A stretch of 64,000 nucleotides of DNA, taken from the sequence record CP089609.1; one strand, given 5' to 3'. Source of the stretch: a plasmid. Both the position numbers and the translations under genes were made by a program. Shown here one piece after another: positions 9,640 through 64,000 of this stretch (position 1 is its first letter; each line of letters begins with the position of its first letter). Below the pieces are notes generated by a model. That model was not told the DNA's origin and did not search any database. It saw only the letters and a list, made by a program, of their open reading frames with translations.

Positions 9640-10976
9640 ATGAGTACCGACGGAGCGCAAGACACCCACACCGCGCCCGACCCGCGGGCCGCCACCCTGC
9701 CCAGTCCTCTGGCGGACCTTCTGAACTCCATCCCGAAACCGGCGGCCCCGGCCCCGGCACCGGCACCGGCCCCGGCACCTGCCTCCGGCGGCGGTGGTTC
9801 AGGCAACGGCGGCAAAGGCGGTGGCGGCAACCCCAAGGGCGGCGGCGGTAGCGGCGGACAAACCGGGTCGGGCGGCGGAGCCAACACAGCCTCTCAGACC
9901 GATCAGACCGCAGCCGGGGCCGTCGACGCGTCCGCCGCCAACTCTGCGGCTGGTTTCAACAACAGTCAGGGCAACCTCGACCAGCTGCGCGCCGAGATCG
10001 CACGCCTTGGACCGATCCTTGGCACTCCCGAAGGTGATCAGCAGTTGATGGAAGCGCTGCAGCGCTACCTCAATGCCGGCGGCGGACAGCTGCAGGCCAC
10101 CGATGGCGCTTCACAACAACAGGCTGGAAGCCTCCAGTCGCTGCTCGACCAGCTGCAAAGTGACAAGAAGTCGAAGTCCTCCAGCAAGGACGAAGACGAT
10201 GACAGCTCCGACCACAAGGACAAGGGCAAGGACGAATCGTTCAGTGCCAGCGACCTCAAAGACATGTTGTCGTCGCTGCCCCAGGCACTTCAAAGCCTCA
10301 ACCCCTTCGGGCAGCAGTCCCCGTTCGGTCAGCAATCCCCCTTTGGACAGCAATCTCCCTTTGGGCAGCAGTCCCCGCTCGGTCAGCAGTCCCCGTTCGG
10401 GCCGAACAGCAATTCGCCGACCAGCGGCGGTATCACCCCGGCGGCCAATCCGTTCGGATCACTTCCAGGCACAGGATCCAGCGGCAGTTCAGGCAGCAGC
10501 GGTGGAACGCCGGGTACCCCGGGTCTCCCTTCGACGCTCTCAAAACCGAGGCGGAGAAGGAGGGCGGCGACGGTGGCGACGGCAAGGACGACCCCAACAG
10601 CAAGAGCGTGACGTTGCCCAACGGGGAAACGATCGAGGCCGCTACCCCCGAGTTGGCCAAGGCCATGCGCGACAGCATCAACAACGACAACGCCGCAGCC
10701 GTGTACCAGGAGGCGGGCATCGACACCAGCCACGGCGAAAGTGTGGATCCCGACCAGGTACAGCCAGGCGATTGGGCCCGCTACGACGATGGCAGTATCC
10801 GGGTCGCGGCCGGACCCGGAAAAGTGCTCAACAACGGCCAGGTGGTCGACGTAACTTCGTCCTCAGGTGAAACCGACGGCTTCGAAGGCTGGTACTCACC
10901 ACCGGACAGCGGTGGCGATGCGAGCAGCAGCGGTGGCACGACGGACACCACCGTGACAGCAAGCAAGCATCAGTAG
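9640..10976 (+). CDS. Secreted/low-complexity repeat protein (PAPA run, Gly-rich GGxGG run, 5x FGQQSP), frame switches near 10505-10525
   Basis: ORF 9640-10611 and ORF 10608-10976 are both coding-like and meet at a CCCCGGG run. After GGTPGTPG the +1 frame reads SPFDALKTEAEKEGGDG..., while the original frame decays into RRRRRAATVATART. Confidence 0.55.
10305..10400 (+). repeat. Tandem 18-nt repeat x5 encoding FGQQSP
   Basis: ttcgggcagcagtccccg-like units repeated five times directly in the sequence. Confidence 0.85.
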
Positions 10977-16529: not shown

Positions 16530-17120
16530 TTAAGGTGTGCCGGCCGGCGGTGAGCTGTCAGCCAGCTCGTCCTGAGCGATCTGGACGTGAACGCCGTGGC
16601 CGATATGGATTAGTCGCACCAAGCCACCGCTGTACGGGTTTGTGCTCCTCGCCAAGATGGTGACGGGCTGCCCTTGGTCGGCTATGGCGGGGCGGTATGC
16701 CTGAGCGTGGTAGGTGCGCAGCCCGATCAGGGTCAGCAGCGGATTGCTGGTGAGCAGTATCGTCGTGCGGACTGCGAGGAATCCGAGGAGGAACAGGGCG
16801 GCCAGCGCCGCCCAGCGGGCCGCCGACGGAGAAACCAGTGCGATAGCACTGGGAACGACGTAGAGACTCAGAAGGCTGTCGGCGCTCGTGACGCTGCGCA
16901 CATCCTGGAGCTGCCACAGACCCGAATTGAGGTTGGGAACCGCGCGGCGGAAAAACAGTACGGTGATCGCAACACCGACGGCGGCGACAACGGCGATCGT
17001 GACGTTCACCCAGGTCTGCGGCCAGAGATGCCGTGTGGCCAACATCAGCAGCGATGGCGAGAGCGTGGAGACCGCCAGAGCCGTCGTGATGAACGGTGAC
17101 GGGCCGAATTCACGCATCAT
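16530..17120 (-). CDS. Polytopic membrane protein downstream of jetC
   Basis: 196 aa with about 5 TM helices. Lies directly 3' of the jetABC-like operon; it has no Toprim motif, so it is not JetD. Confidence 0.5.
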   Translation of the reverse strand: MMREFGPSPFITTALAVSTLSPSLLMLATRHLWPQTWVNVTIAVVAAVGVAITVLFFRRAVPNLNSGLWQLQDVRSVTSADSLLSLYVVPSAIALVSPSAARWAALAALFLLGFLAVRTTILLTSNPLLTLIGLRTYHAQAYRPAIADQGQPVTILARSTNPYSGGLVRLIHIGHGVHVQIAQDELADSSPPAGTP

Positions 17121-17252: not shown

Positions 17253-20200
17253 TCACATCGAGCCTTTCGGTCTGCGGCTTCTGCCGGCGCGGCGAGACCG
17301 CGACGGGTCGGCCGACGGTGTCGGTTCGGGGCCAGTGAGCACGGTGATGCGTGATCGGTGATGGCTGTTCTTGGTGATGCACAGGATCCGGTCAACGTGG
17401 GGTTCGATGCTATTGACCTTGTCGTCAGGTGCCCCGATGATCAGTTGGAAGCCCAGACCTTTCCATGCGGCCACAGCGCGGCCGGCGAAGGCGGCATCGG
17501 ATTTGATGAAGCCTTCATCAAGGATGATCGGCGCGTACCGAGGCCAATGGGCGTCGCCGAGTTGGTAGCGCAGCGCGGCGCCGACGATGAAGGCGATCAG
17601 TTCCTGGGATTCGCCGCCGGATTTGCCGGCCAGGCTGGCGTAGACGTTGAGAGTATTCCCGTCGAGGTCGCGGCGTTCGGCTTCTATGTAGACATGGCGC
17701 CGCACGTCGAGGTAATAGTCACGATCAGAGCCGCCGGCGGATTGCCGGATTCGTTGAATGAATCGGGCCAGGGCCAGGAATCGTTTGTGGACCGCGGAAT
17801 CGTCGTCGCCGGGCGCGGTGGTCGCTCCGGCCAGGGCCTTGAGTTCTTTGCGGAAGGCTGCGATATCGGGGGTTTCGGTGTGGCGCAGCGTAATGTGCAG
17901 TCGGTCGCGGCCGGCACCGAAGGGCAGTGTGGTCAAGATGTCGTTGATAGGGTTGAGTCGCGATTCGATGTCGTCGATGGCTTCTTCGAAGGCGCCGTGT
18001 AGCCGCAGTAAGTCGATGCCGGTCCAGTCGTTGACGTCGCGGACGAAGGTGGCTCGGCGGCGGTGCAAACCTTCGGCGGTGAGATCCTCGAAAATGTCTC
18101 GGTAGCCGGGGTAGGACGACACTTCGGTGCCCAGATCGGGGCGGGGCCATTGACGTTGGAAGGTTTCGAAGGTGCTGGTCAGCATCTTGGCTGCCCGTGC
18201 GGCGGCGTTGCGGGCGGCATCGATCTTGGCGTTGAGGGTGGCGTGCAGCCGGGCCAGCGCGGACCCGAACGCGTCTGGGGTGAGGTCGGTGGTGCCCACG
18301 GCGGCCAACTCGTCATCGAGGCGGGCGACCAAGGCGTCGGCCAGGATCGGAGCGCCGGCGGGTTCGACGAGCTCGCCGCGCCTGCAGTCCAGCCGCCTCA
18401 GCTCGTCGATCAGCCGCTCGGTGTCCGCCTCGGCGAGGTGTCGGGCTCGGGCGGCGGATTCGCGGCGGGCGAGCAATTCTTCACGGCGCGCTCCGGTGTC
18501 GGTGTTCCCCTCGACCAGAGCGGTGCGGTGGGCGTGCAGCGCGTCGAGCTGGGCTGTCGCGGCGGCGACGTCGACGGCAGGCCAGGTGGTGTCGGCTACG
18601 TAGCGGTGGGCGTCGCGGCGGACGGTGAGCTCGTCGAGATCGGTGGCGAGACTGTCGAGTTCTGCGGCGGCTGCGGCCAGTTCGGTCTCGGCTGCGGCCA
18701 GTTCGGTCTGCAGCTGGGTGCGGCGTTCAGCATTGGATACGCCGATCACCGGAGGCCGGCTACCGCCGTGGGCTCCTCGGCGTCCGCTCTTCGTTTGTCC
18801 AGTGATCGTCAGGCCGCGGTCCACGTCGTTCAGTTGCGCGGGGTCATCGACGCAGCGGTAGTCGAAGCTGGTCAGGATGCGGGTCATGAGCCAGCCCGCG
18901 AATGGTGAGGTCTCATCGACTCTCAACCGTGCGGGCAGCATCGCAGTGTCGGCGCAGTCTGGGATGGGCTGGTCGACGGGCGCTCCTTCGAAGTTGACCC
19001 GGCGCGGCAGCTTCAAGGTGTTGATTCGGACCCGGGCTTGTTCGATGCGCCGGGTATCGATCAGCACGGTGACCGAAAGGCCCCCCAGCGCGCGATCAGC
19101 GGCCAACCTCCAGTCGTGGAACCCGTCGGCCATGTCGAGCAGTTCTCCGACGAACGGCACCTCGTGGGGATCGAGTTCGAGCGCTTCGGCGATCAAGCAC
19201 CGCGCGTTGTGCAGTTCGGCGGGGATTACGCCGGCACGGCCGGCCAGCGAGTGCAGTTCGTCGACAAGGGCGCCGCGGCGGGCCTGCAAGCCTTGGTGGC
19301 GACCGACGGCGCGGTCGCGTTGCTCGCGCAGTTCGCCGGCGACGTGGGCATAGTCGACGGACAGGAATTGTGCTGCGGCGGCTTGAGCCGCCGCGAACTG
19401 CTCCGCACTCGATGGTGGATCACCGAGCACCGTGGTGCGTTCCCGGTAGATTTTGAGGGCCTGTTCGGTGTCTTGCTGGGCTTGTGCGACCTGTTCCAGA
19501 GTGCGATCGAGTTCATCGAGCGCGACCGTGCCGGGCTCGGTGTCACGTAGGGCAGCCAGTTCGGTCTCGGTGGCCCGTTCCGCTACTCGGGCCTCAGCTG
19601 CCCGCGCCTCGGCTGTAGCACGGTCAGCGGTGAGCTGTCCGATGGTCGCGTCGATCAGCCGCCGTTCGGTCAGTGTTGCCCACACCTGTATCGGCGATGG
19701 CGAATGATCGTCTGCGGCACCGACCAGCATGCTCAGCGTGGCGAGGTCCTCGTGTGCGCTGCTCCAGTCGCCGTACCATTCGGTGATCGGGGTGAGCGTT
19801 TCGACTTGCAGTTCAGCGGTTTTCATGGCCTCGTAGGAGGCTTGCAAGTCGTCGAAATGGGTGATCGCGTCATCGGCGACCGCCAGGGTCTTGGGTCGTT
19901 CAAGGACCATGCTTTTGAACAGGCCGTCCACGGTGGTGACCGCCCGACCGGCCTGGATCCGTGCCAGCAGTCCCAGTGCGCGCTCCCCTTCGCCGGGCAG
20001 GCCGATGCCCAGCCGGGTGCACACTGCGGTGCAGAACGCTCGGTATGACCCGTGAAAGTCGATGCCCTCGAACCGGGTCCGCAGTTGGGCTGGATCGAAC
20101 TGGGAGGGGGCGGAACTGGCGACCTCTGACAGATCGAATCCTCCATCGATGGTGGCCATCCGTTTGGTGATGTCGTCGAAGCGGGTGGCCGACGGCTGTG

Positions 20201-20615
20201 CGTAGTAGAGCCGCATCGCGGTGAACCGCTGATCGGATTCGGTTCGCCAGGTTGCTGCGATCGCCGACCAGGTCGGGGTGGTGCGACCGCGCAGCACCTG
20301 GTCGGTTAGGGCAGATGATCCCTCGACTCGGTTGTCGTCAATCTTTCCGCGCATGTACCGCAGCACATTTCGCTGATCGCCGCCCCGGGCTCGACCGGAC
20401 ACATTGTCGTTGGATGCGCCGTTGAACGGGATCCGCGAGGGCATCAGCAGCGCGATGTAGGCGTCGAGAAGAGTGGACTTGCCGGTGCCGGTCGCCCCGC
20501 TGATCAGCGTCGACGTCGTCGAGACCTCGACTCGGTGGTGCCCCTCGAAACCGCCCCAGTTCACCAGCTGTATCGATTCCAACAGCCACTGGCCGTGCAT
20601 GGTGTCCTCGGTCAT
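17253..20615 (-). CDS. jetC: SMC/MukB-like ABC ATPase, JetC/MksB-like (wadjet/Mks condensin-like system)
   Basis: 1120 aa. N-terminal LESIQLVNWGGFEGHHRV...LISGATGTGKSTLLDA (Walker A), about 800 aa of coiled-coil-type sequence, and a C-terminal signature GKSGGESQ, Walker B PIILDEGF and a D-loop. An ATGA overlap links it to the upstream gene. Confidence 0.75.
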   Translation of the reverse strand: MTEDTMHGQWLLESIQLVNWGGFEGHHRVEVSTTSTLISGATGTGKSTLLDAYIALLMPSRIPFNGASNDNVSGRARGGDQRNVLRYMRGKIDDNRVEGSSALTDQVLRGRTTPTWSAIAATWRTESDQRFTAMRLYYAQPSATRFDDITKRMATIDGGFDLSEVASSAPSQFDPAQLRTRFEGIDFHGSYRAFCTAVCTRLGIGLPGEGERALGLLARIQAGRAVTTVDGLFKSMVLERPKTLAVADDAITHFDDLQASYEAMKTAELQVETLTPITEWYGDWSSAHEDLATLSMLVGAADDHSPSPIQVWATLTERRLIDATIGQLTADRATAEARAAEARVAERATETELAALRDTEPGTVALDELDRTLEQVAQAQQDTEQALKIYRERTTVLGDPPSSAEQFAAAQAAAAQFLSVDYAHVAGELREQRDRAVGRHQGLQARRGALVDELHSLAGRAGVIPAELHNARCLIAEALELDPHEVPFVGELLDMADGFHDWRLAADRALGGLSVTVLIDTRRIEQARVRINTLKLPRRVNFEGAPVDQPIPDCADTAMLPARLRVDETSPFAGWLMTRILTSFDYRCVDDPAQLNDVDRGLTITGQTKSGRRGAHGGSRPPVIGVSNAERRTQLQTELAAAETELAAAAAELDSLATDLDELTVRRDAHRYVADTTWPAVDVAAATAQLDALHAHRTALVEGNTDTGARREELLARRESAARARHLAEADTERLIDELRRLDCRRGELVEPAGAPILADALVARLDDELAAVGTTDLTPDAFGSALARLHATLNAKIDAARNAAARAAKMLTSTFETFQRQWPRPDLGTEVSSYPGYRDIFEDLTAEGLHRRRATFVRDVNDWTGIDLLRLHGAFEEAIDDIESRLNPINDILTTLPFGAGRDRLHITLRHTETPDIAAFRKELKALAGATTAPGDDDSAVHKRFLALARFIQRIRQSAGGSDRDYYLDVRRHVYIEAERRDLDGNTLNVYASLAGKSGGESQELIAFIVGAALRYQLGDAHWPRYAPIILDEGFIKSDAAFAGRAVAAWKGLGFQLIIGAPDDKVNSIEPHVDRILCITKNSHHRSRITVLTGPEPTPSADPSRSRRAGRSRRPKGSM

Positions 20616-21325
20616 GGCTGCACCGCCTCATCGACCGGTTCGGCCGCCAGTTCCTCTGCGCTGCCGCCATTGTGGGCGCGCAGCCAGGTGCCCAATTCTT
20701 TGAGCCGGTCCAGTGACATCAGCGCTTCCACGATCGGGGCGACCTGGTATCGCTCGCCGTCGCCGGTGTCGATCAACAGGTCCAAGCGCACCAGTGAATC
20801 GATAGCGGCTCGGACCGCTTTCTCGTCGCGAACGTGGTTGGTCGCATCAGCGGGCCGGTAGTTGGCGGCCTCGGCCACCAAATCTGAGCGGTCGACGAAT
20901 ACCGCGGGGTCATCGAGATGACGCCCACGCAGCAGCATGCGTAGGTGCACGAGCAGGATCGTTTCTTCCCTCGAATAGCTCTGATCGTGCAACACCGTCG
21001 GGAAGGGCTGACTGCCTCCATCCGGGCGGGCATGACGCTTGTAGGCCACCGCCCGATCGGTATCGACAACCAACTGAATAAACAAATCGTTGAGCCGCGA
21101 CTCCAACAGCGGCCGGTTCTGGATCAGAACCCGCCAGTCAACAGGGTTGCGGTCGGCGGAAATGTAGCGCTTCTTCAACAAGGAAACCAGGGTCCGCCGT
21201 ACATCTGCACCCAACTGCCCCTGATCACCGTCGAACAGCGGCCCCGGGCCGTCAAAGTCCTCCACAGCCTCCGGTGCAGCCCACTGAGGGCCGATCATGT
21301 CTTCGCCGTCACGCATGTCAGTCAT
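20612..21325 (-). CDS. jetB: JetB/MksE-like protein (DUF4194-like)
   Basis: 237 aa when started at ATG 21325 (MTDMRDGED...). The upstream part of the longer ORF is out-of-frame Arg/Trp junk. It overlaps the jetA stop by 8 nt and the jetC start by 4 nt (ATGA). Size and pattern (VSLLKKRYISADRNPVDWRVLIQNRPLLESRLNDLFIQLVVD...) match JetB. Confidence 0.65.
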   Translation of the reverse strand: MTDMRDGEDMIGPQWAAPEAVEDFDGPGPLFDGDQGQLGADVRRTLVSLLKKRYISADRNPVDWRVLIQNRPLLESRLNDLFIQLVVDTDRAVAYKRHARPDGGSQPFPTVLHDQSYSREETILLVHLRMLLRGRHLDDPAVFVDRSDLVAEAANYRPADATNHVRDEKAVRAAIDSLVRLDLLIDTGDGERYQVAPIVEALMSLDRLKELGTWLRAHNGGSAEELAAEPVDEAVQP

Positions 21326-22840
21326 CGTCACCCCCGACCGCCGCGAGCCCGTCGCGATGACGCTCACCGAATGCGATCGCCGGCAGCCGAAGTTGCCGGT
21401 ACGTGCCATCAGCTCGCACCGTTTCGGCCACCTCGCCCCCCTGCGGATCTGCTTCGTCGAGCTCACCCAGGACCGCGGCCAGTTGCATGAGGCCGAACAC
21501 TTCGACGGGTCGTCGCAGCTCCTCGGGCAATCCGTTGAAGATGCTGCCCGCGCTGGTCTCGTCAGCCCCGGCACCGTCGATCGCCGCGGCCACCGCCGCG
21601 CGCAAAGCACGGACACTGGGCCCTCCACGCCGGCGAAGATCTTCCAGGGACGGGGCATCGGCCATGTCACCGGCGGTGTCGGCCAGGGGCGGGGGCGGCG
21701 CGTGCTCAGCCGGATCGTAGAAACGTTCCCTGGTATTGCCGATCGCCAGTCCGGACAACCCCAACTCCAACGGCACCCTCGCACGCGGCCCACTGAGCGT
21801 CATCCACTGTGCCAGTTCTTTTTTCGCCTCACGCAAGGCCTCATCGAAATCGCGATCACGCAGCGCATCATGGCTTGTGATGTAGGCGCGCAACGTTGAG
21901 GACAACCGTCTGCGAGCCTCCAGCACGGTGGTGATGCCCCGCCTGATGGACGTCACCGTCGCACGGAACTCGGCGACCTCGGTGGGCGGCTGCTGACTCG
22001 TGAACGGATGCGCGGTGATGCTATCGAGATCTCGGCGCAGCTGATTCATCAACGTCTCGTCACGGAGCAGTTCGACTGCACCCATAAACGCTTTGCCTTC
22101 AAGAGATTCCGACATGAGTCGCGCAGAACGGTCCAGATAGGTGTCGAGGACCTCGCCGGTGCGTCGGCCTTCCTGCCGGAATTCTTCGACCACACTGCGG
22201 TGAATCGTCTTCACGTGCTCGGAGAGCCGCAGAAAGTCGGCCGGGAGTTGAGCTGTCATGTCACGAATGTTCAGGTACTGCTCTACTACCCGCGCCTCAG
22301 GCACCATCGGCACTGCGCCGGCGGCGAGTTGATCGCGTTCAGCGCGCAGCTCGGCGATCTGCTCGTCGATGCGCGCCAGCCGCGCGTCGAGGTCTGGATC
22401 TGCATCCATAGCGCAGCGTCGAGCTGCGGCGATGATGGTGCGGATCCTCGATTGGCCGAACACTGATCGATCCCCGGCCACGCGGTAGACGTAGTCGATG
22501 GCCTCGCGGGCGTGGGAGGTCAGCGAATATTCTTCTCCGCCTTCGTCGCTCGGGCCAGGACGAGCCATTGTTCGCCGACCCAGCGTCGGCACAGTCCGCG
22601 GGCTGGTTCGTCGATGGTGTCCGCGCCGGCGGCGCGCAGTTCCCCCAGGAGTGCCTCGACGAGGGTGTGGAAGCGGTCGGCGGGCACCACGCGGTGTTCT
22701 TGGCCGAAGATCGTGGTGAACACGGCGATGACTACCGCGGCATTTTTGCGGGACATGAGGCTCAAGGTGGGTTTGTCGAATGCCCGCTCGGCGCGCGCCA
22801 GATCGGCGGCAACTCCGCTCATCGACGCAACTATCGGCAT
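21318..22840 (-). pseudogene. jetA: JetA/MksF-like protein (DUF3375-like) with an apparent frameshift near 22555-22580
   Basis: The N-terminal 100 aa (ORF 22840-22520: ...RKNAAVVIAVF...ADRFHTLVEALLGELRAAGA...RRWVGEQWL) and the remaining 420 aa (ORF 22592-21318: ...PGPSDEGGEEYSLTSHAREAIDYV...) lie in different frames overlapping by 70 nt. Together they reproduce the JetA layout (W-x-E-x-GWL then YP-GSDEP-YDLT). Confidence 0.65.
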
Positions 22841-23436: not shown

Positions 23437-23458
23437 TATACACCGCTACCGGTGTATA
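23437..23458. promoter_or_regulatory. Operator-like palindrome TATACACC-gctacc-GGTGTATA (copy 1); right half carries a TATAGT -10-like hexamer
   Basis: Perfect 8-bp arms with a 6-nt spacer, 38 nt upstream of the 23496 start. Confidence 0.6.
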
Positions 23459-38837: not shown

Positions 38838-40835
38838 TCACGAGAGGCCAGGAGCCTCCGCGCCGGCCAGGACGGATCTCAGCAGCGCAGTGGCGGCGGC
38901 CACCTTGGCTGCGGTCTTGGCTGGCGCTGCCGCGGTGTACGTGACACCGGCCAACGTCGCCCTACAGGTGAACCCGTCTTCCTGAGTAGGCCCGGCCGGC
39001 GCGACATTGAACTCCACAGGGCCCAGCGACTGGCTGGCGGCAAAACCCGTCAGCCAGCCGACCGGATTGGCGAAAGCGTTCGTCCGCTTGACGTCGCTCA
39101 TGCTGGCGACTTTTCTGCGAGCCGTTTCCGGCAGGAGCATCTCCCCGACGTGCTCCGGTACAGTCGGCGCCGCCGGCGCCCCGGTCTGAGTCGTTGGCTG
39201 CAGGTTCGCTGGCACCGGGGCCGGCGGATCCGCCGGCCAGGAGACCGCCTCATCGACTGAGTCTGTGTGTCCGCACACCACGTCGAGCAGTTCCCACATC
39301 GCTTGTGTGGAGGCGGTTTTCTTCGATTCCCCGATCTGCCACCGGCCCACACCGTCCCCGAGCCGTGCGCGGGCGGCGAACAGCGGTTGATGGATTGGTC
39401 GGCTCGGATGGTTCTGTATGTCGATCTCGGCGCCCTGATCGGTGCCGAGGATCTGGGATCGACCGCTCAGTGCGCTGGGACCGAATTCGGGGTGCACCTC
39501 ACGAACTTTGGCGAAGAATCGTTTCCGGATGCCATCCCAGGCCGAGCTGGTGGTGGCCAAGCGGGCAATGTCGTTGGCTACCAGTAGATTTTCATCGAGC
39601 CGGCGGCACAGTTCGGCCTCGATTCCCGGCGCGGGTCCGGTGGCGGTCATCAGGTCGAACATCTTGCGCCACTGCTTTTGATCGAGCGCATCGTAGTTTC
39701 GGTCCAGGATGTGTCGCGCGCTGACTTTGCGGCTCATCTGCTTGAAATGGTCGGCGGTCTCGTTTCGTTTGGCGTCGTTGGATGCGTTGATTTCCGTGGC
39801 GATCGCCGCCAGTTCGTCGGAGCTGTAGACGGCCGGTCCTCCGGCAAGGTGATTCCACACAATCCGTTGAGTGATCAGGTCGGCATAGCGGCGCAGTGGG
39901 GAGGTCACATGGGCGTAGGCGGGCAACCGCAGACCGTGGTGCCCTCGCGGCCGCGGTTCATAACGGGCGCGTCCGAAGGTGCGGGTGACCCGCTGCGCGA
40001 GCTGCTCGAACAACCCTGGATCGTGCAGCGCCGCAGCGAGGTCGGCGGCGATTTCGCGGCCATCGCTGAGCAGGTTGGATTGGTGATTGCGGTAGAGGAC
40101 TTCCAGTCCCTCGTCGATGCACCAATCGGCCAGGGCGCTACTGGCTGCGACCATCAGTTCGGTGTTGATGAGATATCCCACGGTGCGTTGAGCCGGGGGA
40201 ATTTCGGTGAGTTGGCCGTCCTCGGTCACGGTGATTCCGTGGACGAGGTCGTACACGGTGGCCGCACCGGCGGCTGAGCGTCTGGCGAACAGCTGCTGGG
40301 CCAGCCGGTGCGCGGCGTCGAGCATCGGGTTCAGCTGATGCCCTTGCTCATGCAGCACCTTGGGGACGTCCTTGTAGGACAACCGTATGCACGTCCCGGC
40401 GGGCAGAAAGCTCTGGCGCACCGACACCTCGGTGCGTTGCCCGGTGGCATCGAACACCGCTGCGATGGTCAGTGCCGAGCGATCCAGACGGTCGGACAAT
40501 GTGACCTCACGCTCGACTTCGCCGAGCATCGGAATGGTTCTACGTGGCAGATATCGTGAGGCCACCCGGGCCCGGGCCAGCCGATCGTGCTCGCTGTCGC
40601 GCGCGATAACAGCCGCTGTGGCGGCGACGTGAACGGTCAGATTCCATCCTCCGTCAGCGATGGGCTCGACGGTCAGGGCATCGTCAAGGTCGATACTGCC
40701 CGCAGGATCGATCATCACTGCTGACCCGCGCCATTGTCGGCCGGACGCGTTGGGGCAGCTCGCGGTCGCAGTTGGACCGGGTGCTGGTGTCGAGTGGATT
40801 TCGGTCACGGTTTCGGCAGGTCGTTCGCAGCGCAC
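38838..40835 (-). CDS. RNase II/R-family (RNB domain) exoribonuclease with C-terminal dsRNA-binding domain
   Basis: RNB motifs IDLDDALTVE and HHGLRLPAYAHVTSPLRRYADLITQRIV. No N-terminal cold-shock/S1 domains. C-terminal ...FTCRATLAGVTYTAAAPAKTAAKVAAATALLRSVLA is a DSRM-like pattern. The true start may be the internal MIDPAG (about 40715). Confidence 0.7.
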   Translation of the reverse strand: MRCERPAETVTEIHSTPAPGPTATASCPNASGRQWRGSAVMIDPAGSIDLDDALTVEPIADGGWNLTVHVAATAAVIARDSEHDRLARARVASRYLPRRTIPMLGEVEREVTLSDRLDRSALTIAAVFDATGQRTEVSVRQSFLPAGTCIRLSYKDVPKVLHEQGHQLNPMLDAAHRLAQQLFARRSAAGAATVYDLVHGITVTEDGQLTEIPPAQRTVGYLINTELMVAASSALADWCIDEGLEVLYRNHQSNLLSDGREIAADLAAALHDPGLFEQLAQRVTRTFGRARYEPRPRGHHGLRLPAYAHVTSPLRRYADLITQRIVWNHLAGGPAVYSSDELAAIATEINASNDAKRNETADHFKQMSRKVSARHILDRNYDALDQKQWRKMFDLMTATGPAPGIEAELCRRLDENLLVANDIARLATTSSAWDGIRKRFFAKVREVHPEFGPSALSGRSQILGTDQGAEIDIQNHPSRPIHQPLFAARARLGDGVGRWQIGESKKTASTQAMWELLDVVCGHTDSVDEAVSWPADPPAPVPANLQPTTQTGAPAAPTVPEHVGEMLLPETARRKVASMSDVKRTNAFANPVGWLTGFAASQSLGPVEFNVAPAGPTQEDGFTCRATLAGVTYTAAAPAKTAAKVAAATALLRSVLAGAEAPGLS

Positions 40836-48981: not shown

Positions 48982-50076
48982 ATGACCGCCGTCACTGATG
49001 TGTTCAGCGAAGACGAACTCGAGGCCGCCATCGGCAGCGGGTTCATCGAGTCTTTCCGGCATCCTCAGCTGCCACTGACCATCTACAACTACACCGAACG
49101 CGCCCAGTTTGAGACCGCCTGGAACGCCGCCACCCGCGCGTGCCGGGGCCTCATCGTCAACGACGATCGCCGGATCGTCGCCCGCCCCTGGGCGAAGTTC
49201 TTCGAGTACAAGCCGGTAGGCGGACAACACGGCCCCGTGGACCTCGACGCAGCTGTCGAGGCCACCGATAAGGTCGACGGATCTCTGGGCATCCTTTACC
49301 CCGCCGGCCACACGTGGGCGATCGCCACCCGTGGATCCTTCACCGGCAACCAGGCCGCTCACGCCACCACCCTCTATCAGCAGCGCTACGCCGGCGCCTG
49401 GTCCCCTGATCCCGAACTGACCTACTTGTTCGAGATCGTCTATCCGGACAACCGGGTCGTCCTGAACTACGGCGACACAGACGATCTCGTCCTTCTCGGC
49501 GCTTGCCGCATCGCTGACGGTGCATCCGTTACAGCAAGTTCGATCGGCGACTGGCCGGGGCCGCGTGCACAGACTCTGCCGGTCACAACCCTTCGCGATG
49601 CGTTGGCCTTCCCAGACCGGGCCAACGCCGAGGGCCTCGTGGTGACCGTGGTGGAATCCGGCCTCAAACTCAAACTCAAACAACGCGATTACGTACTCCG
49701 GCATCGCATGGTCACCGGGATGTCGGCGCTGGCGGTATGGGAGTACTTGGCCACGGGTGCGGGGATTTCAGGTCTGATATCGGATGGGCACCTTCCCGAC
49801 GAGCTCCACGACTGGGCCCGCGCCGTTGTCGCCGAGCTGCAAGGCCAGCATCTCGCGCTCAAAGATGCCGCCGAACAGGCACATGCAGAGATCATCGCGC
49901 GCCTCGAACCCGGGCACACCCGAAAGGACTATGCCGCCGAGGCTGTCAAACACGCTGACCTGAAAGGCTTCCTGTTCGCGCTCGCGGACGGGCGCCTGGA
50001 CAAGTTCGAGGCTGCGTTGTGGAAGTCCGTTCGACCTGATGCCAACGAACTGCGCTCCGAAGGGGCTTCCCGATGA
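48982..50076 (+). CDS. T4 Rnl1-family ATP-dependent RNA ligase
   Basis: Motif I TDKVDGSLGILY (compare T4 Rnl1 LTKEDGSLVSTY). N-terminal LTIYNYTERAQF...RACRGLIVN...RIVARPWAKFFEY parallels T4 Rnl1 RIFSYNYASYSDW..ALECRGIMFE..VRIASRPMEKFFNL. Later EGLVV..SGLKLKLKQRDY parallels [20 protein letters not shown]. About 364 aa, the same size class as gp63. Confidence 0.8.
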   Translation: MTAVTDVFSEDELEAAIGSGFIESFRHPQLPLTIYNYTERAQFETAWNAATRACRGLIVNDDRRIVARPWAKFFEYKPVGGQHGPVDLDAAVEATDKVDGSLGILYPAGHTWAIATRGSFTGNQAAHATTLYQQRYAGAWSPDPELTYLFEIVYPDNRVVLNYGDTDDLVLLGACRIADGASVTASSIGDWPGPRAQTLPVTTLRDALAFPDRANAEGLVVTVVESGLKLKLKQRDYVLRHRMVTGMSALAVWEYLATGAGISGLISDGHLPDELHDWARAVVAELQGQHLALKDAAEQAHAEIIARLEPGHTRKDYAAEAVKHADLKGFLFALADGRLDKFEAALWKSVRPDANELRSEGASR

Positions 50077-52680: not shown

Positions 52681-53603
52681 ATGTCCACCCGCTGGTTGAG
52701 CCCCTTGCGGTACCCCGGCGGAAAAGGGCGCATGGCCGACGCGTTAGCCGACGTGTTCCAACAGCAGTTCGGTCTGCTCGACGTCGAAGTATGGGCCGAG
52801 CCATTCGCCGGCGGCGCGGGGGCCGGACTGCATCTGCTCGATCGCGGCGTCGTCGACGAGGTCTGGCTGACCGAGAGAAACCCGGCCCTGGCCGCGTTCT
52901 GGCGCACCACCACCACCAACAGCGACGAACTGGCCGCGCGGGTCCGCACATGCCAACCCGACATGTCCACCTGGCACGCCGCGCGCGAGATCGTCGCGGA
53001 GGCGCGGACTGGCGCCGAGATCGCCGATCTCGACCTCGCATTCGCCGCCCTTCTCATCAACCGGTGCTCACGTTCAGGCATGGTCAACCCCAGTGTCGGC
53101 CCGATCGGCGGCAAGAACCAGAACGGCCGCTGGCACCTTCGCTCCCGATGGAACCCCGAGGGCCTGTCCGAACGCATCGATTCGATCGGACGGCTCGGCA
53201 ACCGGATCCGCGTCAGCGAAGGAGATGCGATCACACACATCGCGGAGTTGAACGGATCGGTGGGCATTGAGCACGAGCTCCTGCTGTTCGTCGACCCGCC
53301 CTATCTGGTCCAGGGCAACAAGCTTTATCACGACGGTATGACCTTCGACGACCACAAGAACCTCGCCGAGGCACTACCAACTGCGCAGCTCGCTGGCTGC
53401 TCACCTACGACAGCGACGAACGCATCCTCGGCCTCTATCCGGGCCATCGCATCCTGGCCTACGAGATCGCCCACACCGCTAACCAGGCCCGCATCGAAGA
53501 GGAATACGCGGTCCTATCCGACAATCTCGCGGTCCGCGACGACCAAAACCTACTCACCACGGGCGCATCCCGATGGGTCCAGCACGAGCCCACGCACAAC
53601 TAG
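52681..53603 (+). pseudogene. Dam-family N6-adenine DNA methyltransferase with apparent +1 frameshift near 53380-53390
   Basis: Motif I YPGGKGR, FAGGAG and motif IV FVDPPY are all present. After ...FDDHKNLAEAL the annotated frame turns to Pro/Ser/Thr junk, while the adjacent frame reads ARWLLTYDSDERILGLYPGHRILAYEI..., the canonical Dam C-terminus, ending at TAG 53601-53603. Confidence 0.7.
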
Positions 53604-53629
53604 TCCACCCCGCGAGGAAGGAAACCCGC

Positions 53630-53860
53630 ATGTCAACACCCACCGGCGACCACGAATGGACTAGCGAAGCTGTCGACGGCGCATCTCTAGTCCACCTGGC
53701 CCGCCTCGCAACGGCCGGCGACCAGACCGACATCGTCATGTACGTCCGCAGGCAGGCACACCGGCTCCGCACCCGGGCCCCACAAACGTCACAAGCGCTC
53801 ACCGCACTGATCGACGGAGCTGCCCCGCCTCCCAGCCCGCTACGTGGTGCAGCAACATGA
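53630..53860 (+). CDS. Small hypothetical protein
   Basis: ATG 53630 with a GAGGAAGGAAAC SD. Confidence 0.4.
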   Translation: MSTPTGDHEWTSEAVDGASLVHLARLATAGDQTDIVMYVRRQAHRLRTRAPQTSQALTALIDGAAPPPSPLRGAAT

Positions 53861-57947: not shown

Positions 57948-58220
57948 ATGGCACCTCTTGAACTTCTGACCAACGCCTACGATCGGTTCTTCCCGTTCAC
58001 CAGCGGGACCTTCGCCGTATTCGCCCTCGCCGGCATGGCCATCGTGATCACCATCCGGATCGTGCGCCCGATCCCACTCACCGGCAAGCTGCGCACGGCC
58101 ACGGCCGCATTGCTCCTGACCATCGCATGCATGCTCACCGTCATCGGGATGGTGGGACTGTCGTTGCGACTGCCTGACGACACGATCTGCGTGTGCACCG
58201 GTACCGGCTACCTCCGCTGA
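57948..58220 (+). CDS. Small membrane protein (paralog of 57300-57713)
   Basis: 90 aa with 2 TM helices and a CVCTGTG tail. Confidence 0.45.
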   Translation: MAPLELLTNAYDRFFPFTSGTFAVFALAGMAIVITIRIVRPIPLTGKLRTATAALLLTIACMLTVIGMVGLSLRLPDDTICVCTGTGYLR

Positions 58221-58239
58221 GAGACAGGTCCTTATCCCC

Positions 58240-58587
58240 ATGCTCACGGACCGCGCGGAACGTCACGCCTGGTGCATTCGAGACGACGAGGACGACAGCG
58301 TTGTGCATGCCTGCATCAAGGAGTACAGCGACACCGCCTTCACCGATATCGTCGTCGACTACGACGACACTGAGTACGCGCGCTATTTGAAGAACCTCGA
58401 CGAGGACCGGGACGACGCTTTCACACCGCGAGGGGAGAAACACTTCAAGATGCATCGCGTCCCTGAGACGGATATCCCACCGCATGTCGAGATCGTCGGC
58501 TGCCACTGGCCACGCAGACTCAAACTCGACCCCGAGAGTCCCGACTGGGACACCACGCCGCTGGCCGCGACCCACCCGAACACATAG
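58240..58587 (+). CDS. Acidic hypothetical protein
   Basis: 115-aa ORF. Confidence 0.4.
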   Translation: MLTDRAERHAWCIRDDEDDSVVHACIKEYSDTAFTDIVVDYDDTEYARYLKNLDEDRDDAFTPRGEKHFKMHRVPETDIPPHVEIVGCHWPRRLKLDPESPDWDTTPLAATHPNT

Positions 58588-58653
58588 CGGTCACTAGACA
58601 CGCAAGCAACCGAGACATTTGCCCAACCGAGAGCATGATCGGAGTCCCCCATC

Positions 58654-59547
58654 ATGAACAGCAGCATCGACATGCACGGCACGCCAAAGCAAGCCGACTA
58701 CGCCCGCCGAGCCCTAGCCCGCTATACCGAACGTTCCGTACCAAGGCCCGCAGTTCAAAATCCGGGCGAAGACGAGTACGTGACATTCAACGGCGGATGG
58801 CTGCACGCTATCGCCATCGACGAGGACGTGTTCGCACCCGAGTTTGTCACCGAGCTGCGCGACAAAGTGATCGGCGACCTGATCCACCTCACAGAGGAGC
58901 AACTCTCCGAAATCGCTCCCTCAGCCGAGCTGGATCCCGCTGTGGCCGGCCCTGAATTCCTCCACGAAGAGCTCGTGGAAGCGGACTGGGGCGTGGATGA
59001 CGAAGGCGTATTGATCTACATCGAAATCAAAGACGTCTACTTCAAGATCGACAGCGAAGGCCGCATCACGGGCTGCTCAGACGTCGCCAGCGTCGATACC
59101 TTCATCACCGACGCGGGCGCCAACTGCGTCATTCGTGCCATTCACCACCCGGCTGACGTCTTCGGCGCAACAGGAACCCCACTGCGGACCGCTTTCGACC
59201 TTCTCGAAGATCTCGATTCTGACCTCGACGCCATCAACGCCGCCCGACAAAATCTCCTGGCGGACAAGGGCATTGAATTCGGAGATCCCCGCTCGCTTCA
59301 TCAGCGCAGCGGCACGTACACATGTCGGGTGAACGCTGCAGAGAAGGCGCTCACTTCAGCTGGACGAAACGCACGCTTTCCCAGGTCATGCTGCCACGGA
59401 GACGAGTACCTCGCGATCGCCGCACGCGACCTGATCGGCAGTGCTCCGGACTGGACCTGGGACGCCTACGAACTCATCGCCCGCCCGTACGCGGAAGCCA
59501 CAGGCCGCAAGCTTCACCCCGCCGACCCCGATTGGCTAAGGGTGTGA
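58654..59547 (+). CDS. Hypothetical protein
   Basis: 297-aa ORF with coding-like composition. Confidence 0.45.
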   Translation: MNSSIDMHGTPKQADYARRALARYTERSVPRPAVQNPGEDEYVTFNGGWLHAIAIDEDVFAPEFVTELRDKVIGDLIHLTEEQLSEIAPSAELDPAVAGPEFLHEELVEADWGVDDEGVLIYIEIKDVYFKIDSEGRITGCSDVASVDTFITDAGANCVIRAIHHPADVFGATGTPLRTAFDLLEDLDSDLDAINAARQNLLADKGIEFGDPRSLHQRSGTYTCRVNAAEKALTSAGRNARFPRSCCHGDEYLAIAARDLIGSAPDWTWDAYELIARPYAEATGRKLHPADPDWLRV

Positions 59548-59666
59548 CCGGCGACCAAGTGCACCAGCACGTGTGCCTGTCGAGCCCGGGCTGCCAACGC
59601 TTCGCACTGCAATGGCGCGTGGCCAGCACATAACCCACCCGGACCAGGAAGCGAGCCCCACTGTTG

Positions 59667-60700
59667 TCAGGCGGTGGGAATAGTGCGGAGCGCGTTCATA
59701 ATTGCCGCGTTCTCCCGCGCAAAGTTGAACACAGTCGGCGGTGCCAACCATCGGCCATCATCTGGCACGTCAAGTGCGGCTGACGCGGGGCGCATCACGA
59801 GAACATGGTGAGACCCAGCCGCTCGCCCCAGCCCCACCCGGTAGCCGACATTGCCGATCAACTGACGCATATCCTCTTCGCAACGGTCACTGTCGCGAGG
59901 GTTCAACCAGGACAGGACGTGTATGCCCAGACTCGCGCGCGCCTCGGCCGAACCTATCCGCTCCAGGGGAAACATGGAGCTCGCGACGCCGCGGCCGACC
60001 GGTGCATCGATGATCGCCACCAAATCTGGCAACACCGGCGCGTCCGGGGCAGGTCGGCTTGCCTGTACGCGCCGATGCTGTCCACGCAATATGCGGCCAG
60101 AATGTCTTGGCGCCGTTGATACTCGCACCGGAGCACCTCACCGAGCTCATCGACAATCGGCGATACTCCCGCTCCAAACGGATCGTCGGCGCTCGGGGTG
60201 CGCATCCAATGCTGCAGAACGTGAGGCAGTCCCGTCGGCAGGTCCGCAAAAGTGCCCTGTCCAAACGCGTCTAGATCCGCCAGCAGTAGATTGACCCGCT
60301 TCGGGAGTACTGCAAGCAGAGCGCCGCCGCGGCGGCGGCGAGGAGAGTGCTTTTGCCGAGACCCCCACAACCTCCAGCAACGAGGCCGAAGATCAAGCCA
60401 GGTACCCCGACGGTGACCACGGCCCCGTCTTCGTCGTAGCCCACCGGGATCTGCAACTCTGAGTCGTGCTCATGGGTCCGCCAGACACCGGCGGGGTCGA
60501 AACCTCTGGTAGTGATACCGAGAGCTTCAGCGAAGCTGGGCACGATGGACGTCCGAGTGACAGCTCGGGCTGCATCGCGATATTCGCCGCCATACTTGGC
60601 TTGGTGGGCACGCGCGGCTTCTTTGCGGGCATTGTTTCGCTGGCGGGGATGATTGGTCACGAGAGGCCTCCATTGCTTACCTTCGGGCGCACCCCACACA
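59667..60700 (-). pseudogene. ParA/MinD/CpaE-like ATPase remnant spread over three frames (two apparent frameshifts)
   Basis: Minus-strand ORFs 60798-60271 (..VTVGVPGLIFGLVAGGCGGLGKSTLLAAAAAAL), 60370-59954 (..RVNLLLADLDAFGQGTFADLP..) and 60128-59667 (..LVAIIDAPVG...VLVMRPASAALD...) together read as a ParA-like protein. Confidence 0.45.
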
Positions 60701-61094
60701 TGCAGTCCCAGATGACAACGGGGCGTTGTACCGCGTCGCCCGAAGGGCGGGGCCCCAACACAACAATGCCTGGTCGGGATTGCCGGTGCGGGCGGCACAG
60801 ACCGGACGAAGCTGGGGGTACGCCGCGCGGTGCGACGATGCGCTCCAGCCTATCGACGCGGCCACCGATTTCAACCCATGTCTGATCGCGCGCCTGACCG
60901 TTCGCTGGGTGACGCGGATCGTGAGGAACCAAGTTCCATGTGGTCTACACCGCGATCACTGCGACCTATATCGTCGAGCTCTACCAGGTCGAGCACGCCG
61001 AAGGCGGCCACACACCATCAGGGCGCCGGCCGGGTGGCAGATCGGACGGAAGCTCAGACCTGTTGGCTGGCTGTGGGATGCTCACCACTCGCAC

Positions 61095-61116
61095 TATACA
61101 CCGCCTCAGGTGTATA
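61095..61116. promoter_or_regulatory. Palindrome copy 7 (TATACACC-gcctca-GGTGTATA)
   Basis: About 100 nt upstream of the deaminase-fusion gene. Confidence 0.55.
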
Positions 61117-61213
61117 CAGCGGATTGGTTGGACACCTCCGTTCTCGCGCACATTTTCCAGGTCATGCGCCCATCCTGCGAACTTGATCACCTCCGGACAG
61201 TTACGCTGCGCGG

Positions 61214-62628
61214 GTGGTTACCAAGGGCCCGGAACTGGTCATCGGTCTCGTCGCACCGCTGGGCACGAGCACCACCGAACTCGCCACCGAAGTCAAAGGC
61301 GCACTGGCGGCGTACGGCTACAAGCCGGTCATCATCAAGATGTCTGACCTGATACCCGGATCCGGCCCGCTCGGTGAAGCAGAAGATGACCGGATCCGCC
61401 GGCTTATCGCTGCCGGCAATGCCTTCTGCAAAGCAAACGACGATGACCCGGCCGCCCTGGCCCGGCTCGCTATCAACAGAATCCGCGCCAGCCGCATCGA
61501 CCTGCTACGCCAAACCGGCGATACCCGTCCCACCGAGGACCTGGTCATCGGTGGCCGGCCACGCACCGCCTACATCATCCAGTCACTCAAGCGGCTCGAC
61601 GAAGTCCAGCTTCTGCGCGAGGTCTACGGCAGCCAGTTCATCCTCCTGGGCAGCCAGGGCACCCTCGAACAGCGCACCGCCAGCCTGATGCGGTTGAGCC
61701 TGTCCTCGCTGCCCGAATCCAGCCGCCGTGATCTGGTCAAACTCCTGATTCAGGTCGACGCCAAAGACGACGACCCGCTCGGACAGAACGTCAACGCCAC
61801 CTACCCGCAAGCCGACTTCTTCATCCGCAACAACGCCCGCAGTGAGATCGACAGGGCGATCGGGCTGCTGTTCGGAGCTTCCATCGCACCCGAGATCGGT
61901 GAATTCGCGATGTATGTGGCCCGGGCCAGCCGCGCCCGTTCCCTGGCCGCCAGCCGCAAGGTCGGCGCAGCGATCGTCGTCGGCGACGCAGTCGTTGCCA
62001 CCGGCTACAACGACGTCCCCACGGCCAGGAGGCCGACATTCTCGAAGGCGTCGACACCAGTGAACAGTTCAAACGCGACAACCTCTCAGACACTCTCCGA
62101 CGTCTCAAGTCCGCCGGCATGCTCAACGACGCCGTGACCATCGACGAGGCCGCCGTCTCCGCGGCCGCGGCCGCTCTCAAAGGTGGAGACCTGCTGAGCG
62201 TGATCGAATACCAGCGCGCCGTCCACGCCGAGGCCAGAGCCATCGACGACGCCACCATCCGCGGCGTCTCCACCGTCGACGGCATCCTCTACGTCACCAC
62301 CTTCCCGTGCCATCTCTGCTACAAGCACGCCCTGTCGGCACGGATCAAACGCGTCGAATACATCGACCCCTATCCCAAGAGCCGAGCCGTCCAGATGTAC
62401 CCCGTGGATGTCGAAGAACGACTCATCCCGTTCACCGGCGTCGCACCACGCCGCTACTTGGAGATTTTCGACGACCGCCCCGCACCCCAATCGGACGAAT
62501 CAGGGAGATTCCCCACACACGACCCGAGCGTCGCACAGCCACTTGTCGGACCCGTGAGCGAAGATGACAGCCGAGCCGACAAAGAACGCCGCGCGATCCA
62601 CCGGTTGAAGGAGCAGTACCGAACATGA
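61214..62628 (+). CDS. Two-domain protein: N-terminal kinase-like domain (degenerate P-loop) + C-terminal CMP/dCMP-type zinc deaminase; apparent -1 frameshift at CCCC run near 62018-62022
   Basis: The deaminase motifs RKVGAAIVVGDAVVATGYNDVP, HAEARAI (the zinc-binding HAE motif) and PCHLCYKH (PCxxC) are split between ORF 61214-62137 and ORF 62119-62628. The N-terminus has VIGLVAPLGTSTTEL, a P-loop-like GxxxxGT/S motif without the Lys. Confidence 0.6.
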
Positions 62629-62798
62629 CGCCACTACCAGGCCTGACCCCTCAGGACCGCGACTACCTGGCCAGATCAGCTGCCGACTTCAGCGACATCG
62701 ACGCCCGGACCCTCGCAAGAATCGACGCGGGTTTCGAGCGCGCGCACCAAACCGCACGAGGGATCGCCAACGGATTCCTCGACCCACTGACGCACTGA
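62625..62798 (+). CDS. Small ORF (57 aa) coupled by ATGA overlap to the deaminase gene
   Basis: Overlap only. Confidence 0.3.
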   Translation: MTPLPGLTPQDRDYLARSAADFSDIDARTLARIDAGFERAHQTARGIANGFLDPLTH

Positions 62799-62820
62799 CG
62801 AGTCACGGGGCGCTCACTGC

Positions 62821-63258
62821 ATGTCGAACGTGATCGACCGAAGAAAGAGCTTGCTGGCCCGATTCACAATGGACGACGGATGGCACGCACCGGAGATCAT
62901 CCTCGACGAAGACGCTTGCACAACGGCGGGACGCGCGCAGTATCGATCGAAATGCTCATGTGGCGTCGTGTCGCCCGCCACCGACAGCGCCATGGACGCC
63001 CTTGTGGCTCATACCGCGCACGTTGACACCCGCCTCGGACCTTCACACCTCGGCGCACGGATCGCACTGCTGATGTCGGTAATGCTGATGATCTGCGTCG
63101 GCTGCTACATGATCGGTGAGCTCCTCACCCACTCCTACAGCCTCGCCGGCACAACGGCCGCGATCGTGCGCGCCGGATCGTGCATCGTCGGCTTCGCAAT
63201 GGCCTTCAGCCTGATGCTGGCCGTCCGCCGGTTCATCGGGCCCACTCGCCACGCGTAG
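62821..63258 (+). CDS. Membrane protein with Cys-rich N-terminal region
   Basis: 145 aa with 2 TM helices. Confidence 0.45.
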   Translation: MSNVIDRRKSLLARFTMDDGWHAPEIILDEDACTTAGRAQYRSKCSCGVVSPATDSAMDALVAHTAHVDTRLGPSHLGARIALLMSVMLMICVGCYMIGELLTHSYSLAGTTAAIVRAGSCIVGFAMAFSLMLAVRRFIGPTRHA

Positions 63259-63291
63259 TCGATAAACGTAACGGAAAGGGCACCACGGGAA

Positions 63292-63645
63292 ATGACAGAC
63301 ATCAGCAACAGCGTTCAAGCTCCGCGCGGATGGGCAGTCCTGGACCATCACTACAACGACCGCGACTTACCCGAACCGTTCAGATCACTGGGATTCGACT
63401 CCAACAACCTCGGCGCTTCCGTGTGGCTGAACCTGGGAACCGGCGCGATGGTCGGCGCCATCCCGACCGGCCTCTGGAAACAACGCGCTAAATACGCCTT
63501 CTACCACGTCGCACCGAACGCTGGCCAAGCAATCCCGATGCCAGCATGGACCTACGAGCAGCCACAGTGGGATGGGTCCAACGTCAACGAATGTGTTCGG
63601 TTGCACGACGCCGCTATCGAGTACTTCAATAAGCTCAATGATTGA
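63292..63645 (+). CDS. Hypothetical protein
   Basis: GGAAAGGG SD; 117 aa. Confidence 0.45.
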   Translation: MTDISNSVQAPRGWAVLDHHYNDRDLPEPFRSLGFDSNNLGASVWLNLGTGAMVGAIPTGLWKQRAKYAFYHVAPNAGQAIPMPAWTYEQPQWDGSNVNECVRLHDAAIEYFNKLND

Positions 63646-63973
63646 CAACAGCAGTGATGGCTCGTCGCGAACCGGGATAATCGCCGATGGCTATCGCTAC
63701 GGCACTGATTGAGCAGTAGTCTCACGACGGTTCTCGACACACATCGATTCCCGATTACGCTGCCGCTCGCCTCGACGGCGTATACGACCTACCCGCGGTC
63801 GCCGAGCACGCAGTGGACCAGCTGGAAGCCAAGTCTCCGTTCGCATTCGAGCTGGGCCTTCTAGTCGAAGCATTCTTCGGAAACGACGAAGAAGTTGCGG
63901 TCGGGGTATCTGAAATGTTCCCCGACGAGAGACGCACCGCATCAAGTGGTCGAGTGGTTCCAACCCTACACCG

Positions 63974-63995
63974 TATACACCTGCTGCGGTGTATA
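63974..63995. promoter_or_regulatory. Palindrome copy 8 (TATACACC-tgctgc-GGTGTATA, TATAGT) at window end
   Basis: Perfect arms; an extra TACACC half-site lies just upstream (63966-63971). Confidence 0.55.
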
Positions 63996-64000
63996 GTTTG

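Follow-up and report, generated by a model that had tools for sequence, protein, structure and literature searches.

The 64,000-nucleotide (nt) stretch of plasmid sequence analyzed here (record CP089609.1; referred to as the window) carries on its + strand, at 61214–62628, a deaminase gene whose reading frame appears broken. The best overall explanation of this locus, and in our view a probable one, is a two-gene cassette on a mycobacterial conjugative plasmid, consisting of an intact deaminase of the AvcD/DCD anti-phage family and a coupled gene encoding a 57-amino-acid (aa) protein. An earlier note on the same DNA had described the deaminase and its frame break; the 57-aa open reading frame (ORF) just downstream was absent from it. 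Judged by gene anatomy, the locus is a probable undescribed two-gene variant of a known family.

The frame break in the deaminase gene

In the window the gene is divided between two + strand ORFs, the 5′ ORF A (61214–62137; GTG start, 307 aa) and ORF B (62119–62628; 169 aa), which lies one base out of frame with ORF A. The break falls at GAC GTC CCC ACG, and adding a single C to the run produces, as the earlier note had proposed, an uninterrupted protein of 471 aa, which reads ...GYNDVPHGQEAD... That note had attributed the break to a CCCC run at 62018–62022; the run exists, its actual position being 62017–62020, and all near-identical copies have C5 there, so that the missing base creates an apparent frameshift.

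The comparison copies are near-identical public assemblies retrieved by exact-protein look-up of a neighbouring gene. In six independent assemblies (L084–L089) sharing 99.9% identity with the window, the deaminase is intact at 471 aa in every case, as is the neighbouring FtsK-like gene at 331 aa. The exact repaired deaminase (P0121) is present in 14 other contigs, and C5 is also the state of P0001/L001, a relative of 99% identity whose sequence reads DVPHGQE. Base-by-base comparison with L086 over 15,350 nt gave 2 substitutions and 6 single-base deletions, and comparison with L093 over 22,091 nt gave 4 substitutions and 4 single-base deletions. Over the total of 37.4 kilobases (kb) there are thus 6 substitutions, no insertions and 10 deletions (at about 3606, 8041, 10516, 22551, 50567, 56228, 57758, 60045, 60302 and 62016), all of the latter on the window side and all in G/C runs of 4–6. 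Because all ten are deletions in G/C runs, the pattern left by systematic under-calling, the deaminase frameshift is almost certainly a homopolymer under-call in sequencing or assembly, and the real gene intact. Of the two outcomes that the earlier note had left open, mis-sequencing is the one favoured by the intact C5 copies and the ten homopolymer deletions, and inactivation is not.

Other genes in the window are affected in the same way. Homopolymer deletions shorten an FtsK-like gene (6177–8246) from 758 to 689 aa and JetA (21318–22592) from 507 to 424 aa, a 445-aa ORF (9640–10870) is likewise truncated, and the 331-aa FtsK-like gene (59667–60798) carries two of the ten; part of the ten may be intergenic. 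At about one homopolymer deletion per 4 kb, the source plasmid record makes the deaminase, JetA and two FtsK-like genes, among others, look falsely like pseudogenes. We reject programmed frameshifting and phase variation as explanations of the C-run, since the other copies are all in frame with C5 and the same type of deletion recurs at nine other genes or sites.

Family and domain architecture of the repaired deaminase

By sequence and predicted structure, the repaired protein is assigned to the AvcD/DCD family of anti-phage deoxycytidine triphosphate (dCTP) deaminases. The PADLOC dCTPase model (PDLC02373) matches residues 4–468 (E=1.3e-115), the best NCBIfam model is NF041025, ‘anti-phage dCTP deaminase’ (287.4 bits, E=1.8e-85), and the alignment with AvcD from plasmid p58 of enterotoxigenic Escherichia coli (ETEC) H10407 spans both domains (29% identity, E=7e-43, residues 4–433 against 32–490), all in agreement with the DCD-like reading given in the earlier note. 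The databases hold more than 1,100 homologs, the features described in the earlier note lie far outside coincidence, and the sequence represents a divergent clade of the family. ETEC AvcD experimentally lowers dCTP and deoxycytidine monophosphate (dCMP) and is restrained by an upstream RNA, AvcI/DifV; AvcD is toxic if unrestrained (bioRxiv 10.1101/2021.03.31.437871). By homology, the mycobacterial enzyme would deaminate dCTP or dCMP and act in phage defence.

The AlphaFold model of the repaired protein, built with 87 homologs, is of high confidence (predicted local distance difference test, pLDDT, 93.8; predicted template-modelling score, pTM, 0.92). Together with Foldseek and alignments it delimits an N-terminal P-loop-kinase-like domain (61214–61888, about residues 1–225), confirming the domain that had been proposed previously but not its size of 270 aa. 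The zinc cytidine/dCMP-type deaminase domain follows (61895–62472, about residues 228–420), contains a helical insert of about 60 aa, and is matched by Pfam PF00383, dCMP_cyt_deam_1, over residues 235–383 (E=4.5e-14). The zinc-deaminase signature previously read as HAE...PCxxC is found as HAE at 62224–62232 and PCHLC at 62305–62319, and H338, A339, E340, C366 and C369 are invariant in the 87 homologs, as is PCHxC. Foldseek matches the C-terminal domain to the dCMP deaminases 2w4l, 2hvw, 1vq2 and 7fh4, and the N-terminal domain to the adenylate-kinase-related 3h0k/3lw7, AK5 and the uridine-cytidine kinase UCK2. Neither a sequence search of the PDB, which returned single-domain dCMP deaminases only, nor Foldseek found a full-length AvcD-like structure there.

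The degenerate P-loop-like motif GLVAPLGTSTTEL pointed out in the earlier note is present, and its G17 is invariant in the 87 homologs. Its Walker A reads GLVAPLG17-T-S-T, with Thr at the Lys position, a non-Lys residue here being the family norm. The position of Walker B reads YIIQS, placing Gln-Ser where AvcD has Asp-Gln. The N-terminal domain also carries a conserved SLKRxxEVxLLR motif, of which LKR...E is invariant among the 87 homologs. Because the P-loop is without Lys and Walker B without Asp-Gln, the domain is probably a non-catalytic, nucleotide-binding or regulatory module rather than a kinase.

The coupled small gene and its possible role in control of the deaminase

The 57-aa ORF (62625–62798, + strand) overlaps the deaminase gene by 4 nt, its ATG start running into the stop codon (ATGA), and through this overlap the two genes are translationally coupled. 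Its product is predicted to fold as a helix-loop-helix (pLDDT 88.6; helices at residues 9–20 and 27–48) followed by an extended C-terminal tail, DPLTH, in which DPL(T/S) is conserved. An equivalent stop-overlapping ORF of 55–70 aa (via ATGA, GTGA or TGATG) is found in all 13 actinobacterial loci examined (L001, L002–L007, L082, L090, L091 and loci of M. abscessus and M. marinum), which represent Mycobacterium, Dermatophilaceae, Aeromicrobium and Micromonosporaceae, and it is kept even between loci whose deaminases share only 42% identity. Substitutions among seven of these sequences are distributed 299/237/672 over the three codon positions and many are synonymous, indicating selection on the partner at the protein level. 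A profile search with the partner retrieved 52 database clusters, all ‘hypothetical’ and none with a Pfam domain; for many of them the longest contig is equal in size to that of a deaminase match, consistent with a shared contig, and among the loci examined the profile matches solely directly 3′ of the deaminase. Searches of Pfam, NCBIfam, PHROGs and PADLOC returned no match to the partner, and Foldseek no PDB fold. On the M. adipatum plasmid pMYC1 (L082), the 58-aa partner ORF (7395–7571) is unannotated in the RefSeq record, and the deaminase bears a misleading Gene Ontology term (tRNA wobble adenosine-to-inosine editing).

A second small-protein family occupies the same position in other phyla. 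Proteins of 50–65 aa, with an N-terminal helix, then a ‘WPEWMK’-like motif and a low-complexity tail, are encoded directly 3′ of the deaminase in 21 of about 74 non-actinobacterial loci (L008–L081). Examples lie at L012:5508–5669, L015:5496–5678 and L072:5662–5880 and in L103 just after 2949, and the family occurs in Acidobacteriota, Burkholderiales, Chloroflexota, Armatimonadota, Gaiellaceae and a Vibrio plasmid. On that plasmid, from Vibrio nigripulchritudo, the ORF follows a deaminase that the NCBI Prokaryotic Genome Annotation Pipeline (PGAP) itself names ‘anti-phage dCTP deaminase’. The ‘WPEWMK’ proteins have no match in Pfam, NCBIfam, PHROGs, PADLOC or Foldseek, and profile-profile comparison finds them unrelated to the actinobacterial partner (probability 0.2%). 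We tentatively suggest that a large branch of the AvcD/DCD family, comprising all actinobacterial members examined and the ‘WPEWMK’ members of Acidobacteriota, Burkholderiales, Chloroflexota and the Vibrio plasmid, may be neither a one-gene system nor one with an RNA antitoxin but an obligate two-protein cassette, in which the part of labile inhibitor or infection sensor is played by a coupled protein of 50–65 aa instead of the AvcI RNA. If true, one and the same deaminase toxin would on separate occasions have been joined to an RNA antitoxin and to two or more protein antitoxins unrelated to each other.

The region upstream of the deaminase differs from an AvcI-type leader in its layout. A –10-like hexamer, TACGCT (61202–61207, + strand), is separated from the GTG start by exactly 6 nt, and the arrangement TANNNT-N6-ATG/GTG recurs in 11 of the 13 loci, with TACGCT, TATGCT, TACGAT, TAAGCT, TAGGCT or TAGGAT as the hexamer; when the upstream DNA of homologs at the level of about 65% identity was aligned, no conservation was seen beyond this –10 box. 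In mycobacterial promoters the –10 element occupies positions –12 to –7. Taken with that geometry, the spacing suggests that the deaminase mRNA is leaderless, transcription starting on the start codon itself, which would leave no room for a co-transcribed 5′ RNA of the AvcI type. A scan of 60000–64000 against Rfam gave no match, and a scan for sigma-70 consensus sequences and terminators gave nothing useful. Folding of the 200-nt upstream block against shuffled sequences gave z=–0.79, a test that is blind to AvcI-like RNAs, as the validated ETEC AvcI region scored z=+0.54.

That upstream block (61014–61213, + strand) travels with the gene between related plasmids, as judged from the window and L001, and holds both the promoter and a palindrome, TATACACC-N6-GGTGTATA, at 61095–61116. 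The earlier note had proposed an operator about 100 nt upstream of the gene; the palindrome is indeed there, 98 nt before the GTG, but it is not specific to the deaminase. Nine copies of 22 nt each are present in the window (at 23437, 33460, 41055, 42377, 47225, 48888, 51123, 61095 and 63974) against 0.06 expected. From the ORF lists they appear to sit in inter-ORF gaps upstream of + strand genes, and at seven of the nine sites a –10-like hexamer is made up of the right arm and the bases just after it. The palindrome is thus a regulatory motif shared across the plasmid, in all probability as the operator of a global plasmid regulator, and ties the cassette to the regulon of the plasmid.

These features are compatible with the following mechanism. 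On infection, the deaminase would by homology convert dCTP or dCMP to the corresponding deoxyuridine nucleotide (dUTP or dUMP), emptying the deoxycytidine pool and thereby stalling phage DNA replication. In uninfected cells it would need restraint, since unrestrained AvcD is toxic. For a restraint or regulator in place of the AvcI RNA, we regard the 57-aa protein as the best candidate, because the two arrangements are complementary: where there is a 5′ RNA the 3′ ORF is missing, and where the 3′ ORF is present a leader seems to be missing. It could act as a labile antitoxin that is lost once the phage shuts off host gene expression. The assignment of the partner as a labile protein inhibitor, drawn from gene anatomy, is the weakest step, and we offer it as a tentative possibility. 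A small gene that is always present yet unannotated, and a promoter that appears leaderless, suggest a mode of control unlike the AvcI RNA paradigm; if true, one effector would be regulated by interchangeable RNA or protein antitoxins.

Alternative explanations bear on the deaminase itself as well as on its partner. The gene might be a true pseudogene in this strain, a costly toxin-like defence gene inactivated by an actual loss of one base from the C-run. This would agree with the C4 in the window sequence as given and with the frequent loss of self-toxic defence genes, and the exact repaired protein is without an NCBI accession from Mycolicibacterium fortuitum, consistent with a frameshifted deposited record. 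We consider it very unlikely, however, given that nine more one-base G/C-run deletions hit unrelated genes (two FtsK-like genes, JetA and the 445-aa ORF) and that the balance of deletions, substitutions and absent insertions is the error signature of a platform rather than of selection. A housekeeping or salvage dCMP deaminase of the ComEB type, serving ordinary pyrimidine metabolism with an accessory kinase domain, might be read from the closest solved structures of the C-terminal domain and from database relatives labelled ‘deoxycytidylate deaminase’. Yet the protein fails the ComEB model TIGR02571 (46.5 bits against a cut-off of 219.45), its Walker motifs are degenerate, it is found sparsely and in association with mobile elements, and its full-length similarity is to AvcD/DCD rather than to housekeeping enzymes of 150–190 aa, leaving this explanation with hardly any probability. 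The nucleotide-kinase fold of the N-terminal domain and the position of the protein outside ComEB are also the two points on which the earlier note had made its assignment depend. Some observations do weigh against the explanation that we prefer. The equivalog cut-off of NF041025 is 400 bits and the repaired protein scores under it, so that equivalent function is not guaranteed and RefSeq/PGAP names the relatives merely ‘deaminase’; the Walker-B Asp-Gln that reads Gln-Ser here is essential in Vibrio cholerae AvcD (bioRxiv 10.1101/2021.03.31.437871); the family and fold searches above detect no homology of the partner to any antitoxin; and a separately transcribed RNA may regulate the deaminase.

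The role of the partner and of the cassette as a whole can be construed differently as well. The small protein might be an activator, a phage sensor or an oligomerization subunit, with restraint coming from nucleotide binding by the N-terminal domain or from an unseen RNA. Two unrelated small-protein families in the same position mean that position is silent on the sign of regulation, the partner resembles no antitoxin, and the N-terminal domain is conserved, and essential in relatives; against this, the complementary occurrence of 5′ RNA antitoxins and, seemingly leaderless, 3′ ORFs fits functional replacement, and we judge an activator, sensor or subunit unlikely, if a serious contender. Alternatively, the cassette might be mainly a plasmid-addiction toxin-antitoxin (TA) system, with the deaminase as toxin and the 57-aa protein as labile antitoxin, serving plasmid stabilization over phage defence. 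Carriage on large plasmids, toxin-first translational coupling to a small protein, the toxicity of unrestrained AvcD and the Phd/YoeB TA pair adjoining the M. adipatum copy all accord with such a system. Relatives also reside on chromosomes or in prophage-like islands beside defence genes, however, and the validated family members act in phage defence, making a mainly addictive role improbable, although the two roles are not mutually exclusive. A defence cassette with an intact deaminase and a putatively regulatory small partner remains the reading that we prefer.

Plasmid context and comparison with known systems

The window has a G+C content of 63.7%, encodes VirB4-like, NlpC/P60, FtsK-like and DnaB proteins, and includes proteins identical to UHJ58792.1 and UHJ58733.1, entries of a 220-kb M. 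fortuitum plasmid. On the strength of this gene content and these identities, it is part of a large conjugative-type mycobacterial plasmid of the M. fortuitum type. Megablast of 58000–64000 against phage and plasmid collections gave no match. Comparison of the window with L001 reveals a homology block at 61014–62863 (97.3% identity), with unrelated DNA farther upstream in L001, and the flanks of L001 (1398–3607 and 5456–7291) differ from those of the window (60895–61014 and 62863–63264), delimiting a conserved unit that extends from about 200 nt before the deaminase start to about 65 nt beyond the small ORF. In L001 the cassette is preceded by a 2.2-kb block including a DUF6884 gene and followed by an IS200/IS605-type insertion element (Y1 transposase and OrfB/TnpB).

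Homologs elsewhere also tend to lie among defence-type genes. The deaminase of pMYC1 adjoins the Phd/YoeB pair, the M. abscessus homolog shares its island with HicA, a cytosine methylase and a P4 cII-like gene, and others adjoin a Bil system, HEPN_Swt1/DUF499 and ImmA-like proteins. Such a patchy, mobile, defence-adjoining distribution fits an accessory defence-type gene, and the present plasmid itself has a defence context in its JetABC genes. The analysis extends the known range of this defence family, which acts by nucleotide depletion, to conjugative plasmids of rapidly growing mycobacteria and to islands of M. abscessus and M. marinum, where current annotation says only ‘deaminase’; its carriage by mycobacteria bears on mycobacteriophage therapy and host range.

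The same plasmid carries other genes that deserve mention. Wadjet-type JetA, JetB and JetC are encoded on the – strand at 17253–22592 (PADLOC E down to 0). No JetD-like gene comes after JetC, the next ORF (16530–17120) weakly resembling KwaA, and JetABC may here be a plasmid-borne condensin without the nuclease. A protein with a T4-type RNA ligase domain (48982–50076), an RNB-domain exoribonuclease (38838–40835) and a D12 adenine methylase (52681–53664) possibly provide further defence, counter-defence or RNA-repair functions.

Among known systems, the closest parallel is AvcID (V. cholerae VSP-1 and ETEC H10407 p58), a type III-like TA system, which shares with the mycobacterial locus the two-domain architecture, HAE/PCxxC, a P-loop without Lys, LKRxxExxLLR and carriage on mobile elements. 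AvcD of AvcID is 532 aa long, compared with 471 aa here, and its Walker-B Asp is replaced by Gln in the mycobacterial protein. The two systems differ most at their borders. In AvcID, whose validated systems are proteobacterial, a labile small RNA antitoxin of about 150–175 nt lies directly 5′ of the deaminase and is co-transcribed with it, whereas no 5′ small ORF or small-RNA region is evident here. On ETEC p58 and on an E. coli IncI1 plasmid, an AvcI-type small ORF region lies upstream and no ORF downstream, and in ETEC a terminator hairpin comes right after the deaminase stop, where the mycobacterial locus has a coupled small gene instead.

The DCD family (NF041025; PADLOC dCTPdeaminase), whose hidden Markov models are covered from end to end by the match to the repaired protein, likewise has both domains conserved and is sparsely distributed. 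Actinobacterial homologs were already counted in the DCD study (Tal et al.), and DCD was described as a single-gene system, in contrast to the constant second gene found here. Housekeeping dCMP deaminases (human DCTD 2w4l, Streptococcus mutans 2hvw, T4 Cd 1vq2 and ComEB) resemble the C-terminal domain in fold and in zinc site. They are single-domain proteins of 140–190 aa, allosterically controlled via dCTP and deoxythymidine triphosphate, and the repaired protein exceeds them by the 225-aa kinase-like domain, the helical insert and a C-terminal tail.

Anti-phage TA pairs in which the toxin gene precedes a small downstream protein antitoxin, such as RnlAB and LsoAB, offer the nearest precedent for the gene order. 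There the toxin is an RNase and here a nucleotide deaminase, the interaction with the partner is in our case predicted, and no relation in sequence or fold connects the two; what they have in common is that the toxin gene is followed by a small coupled ORF, that the pair is carried by mobile elements and that the antitoxin is proposed to be labile.

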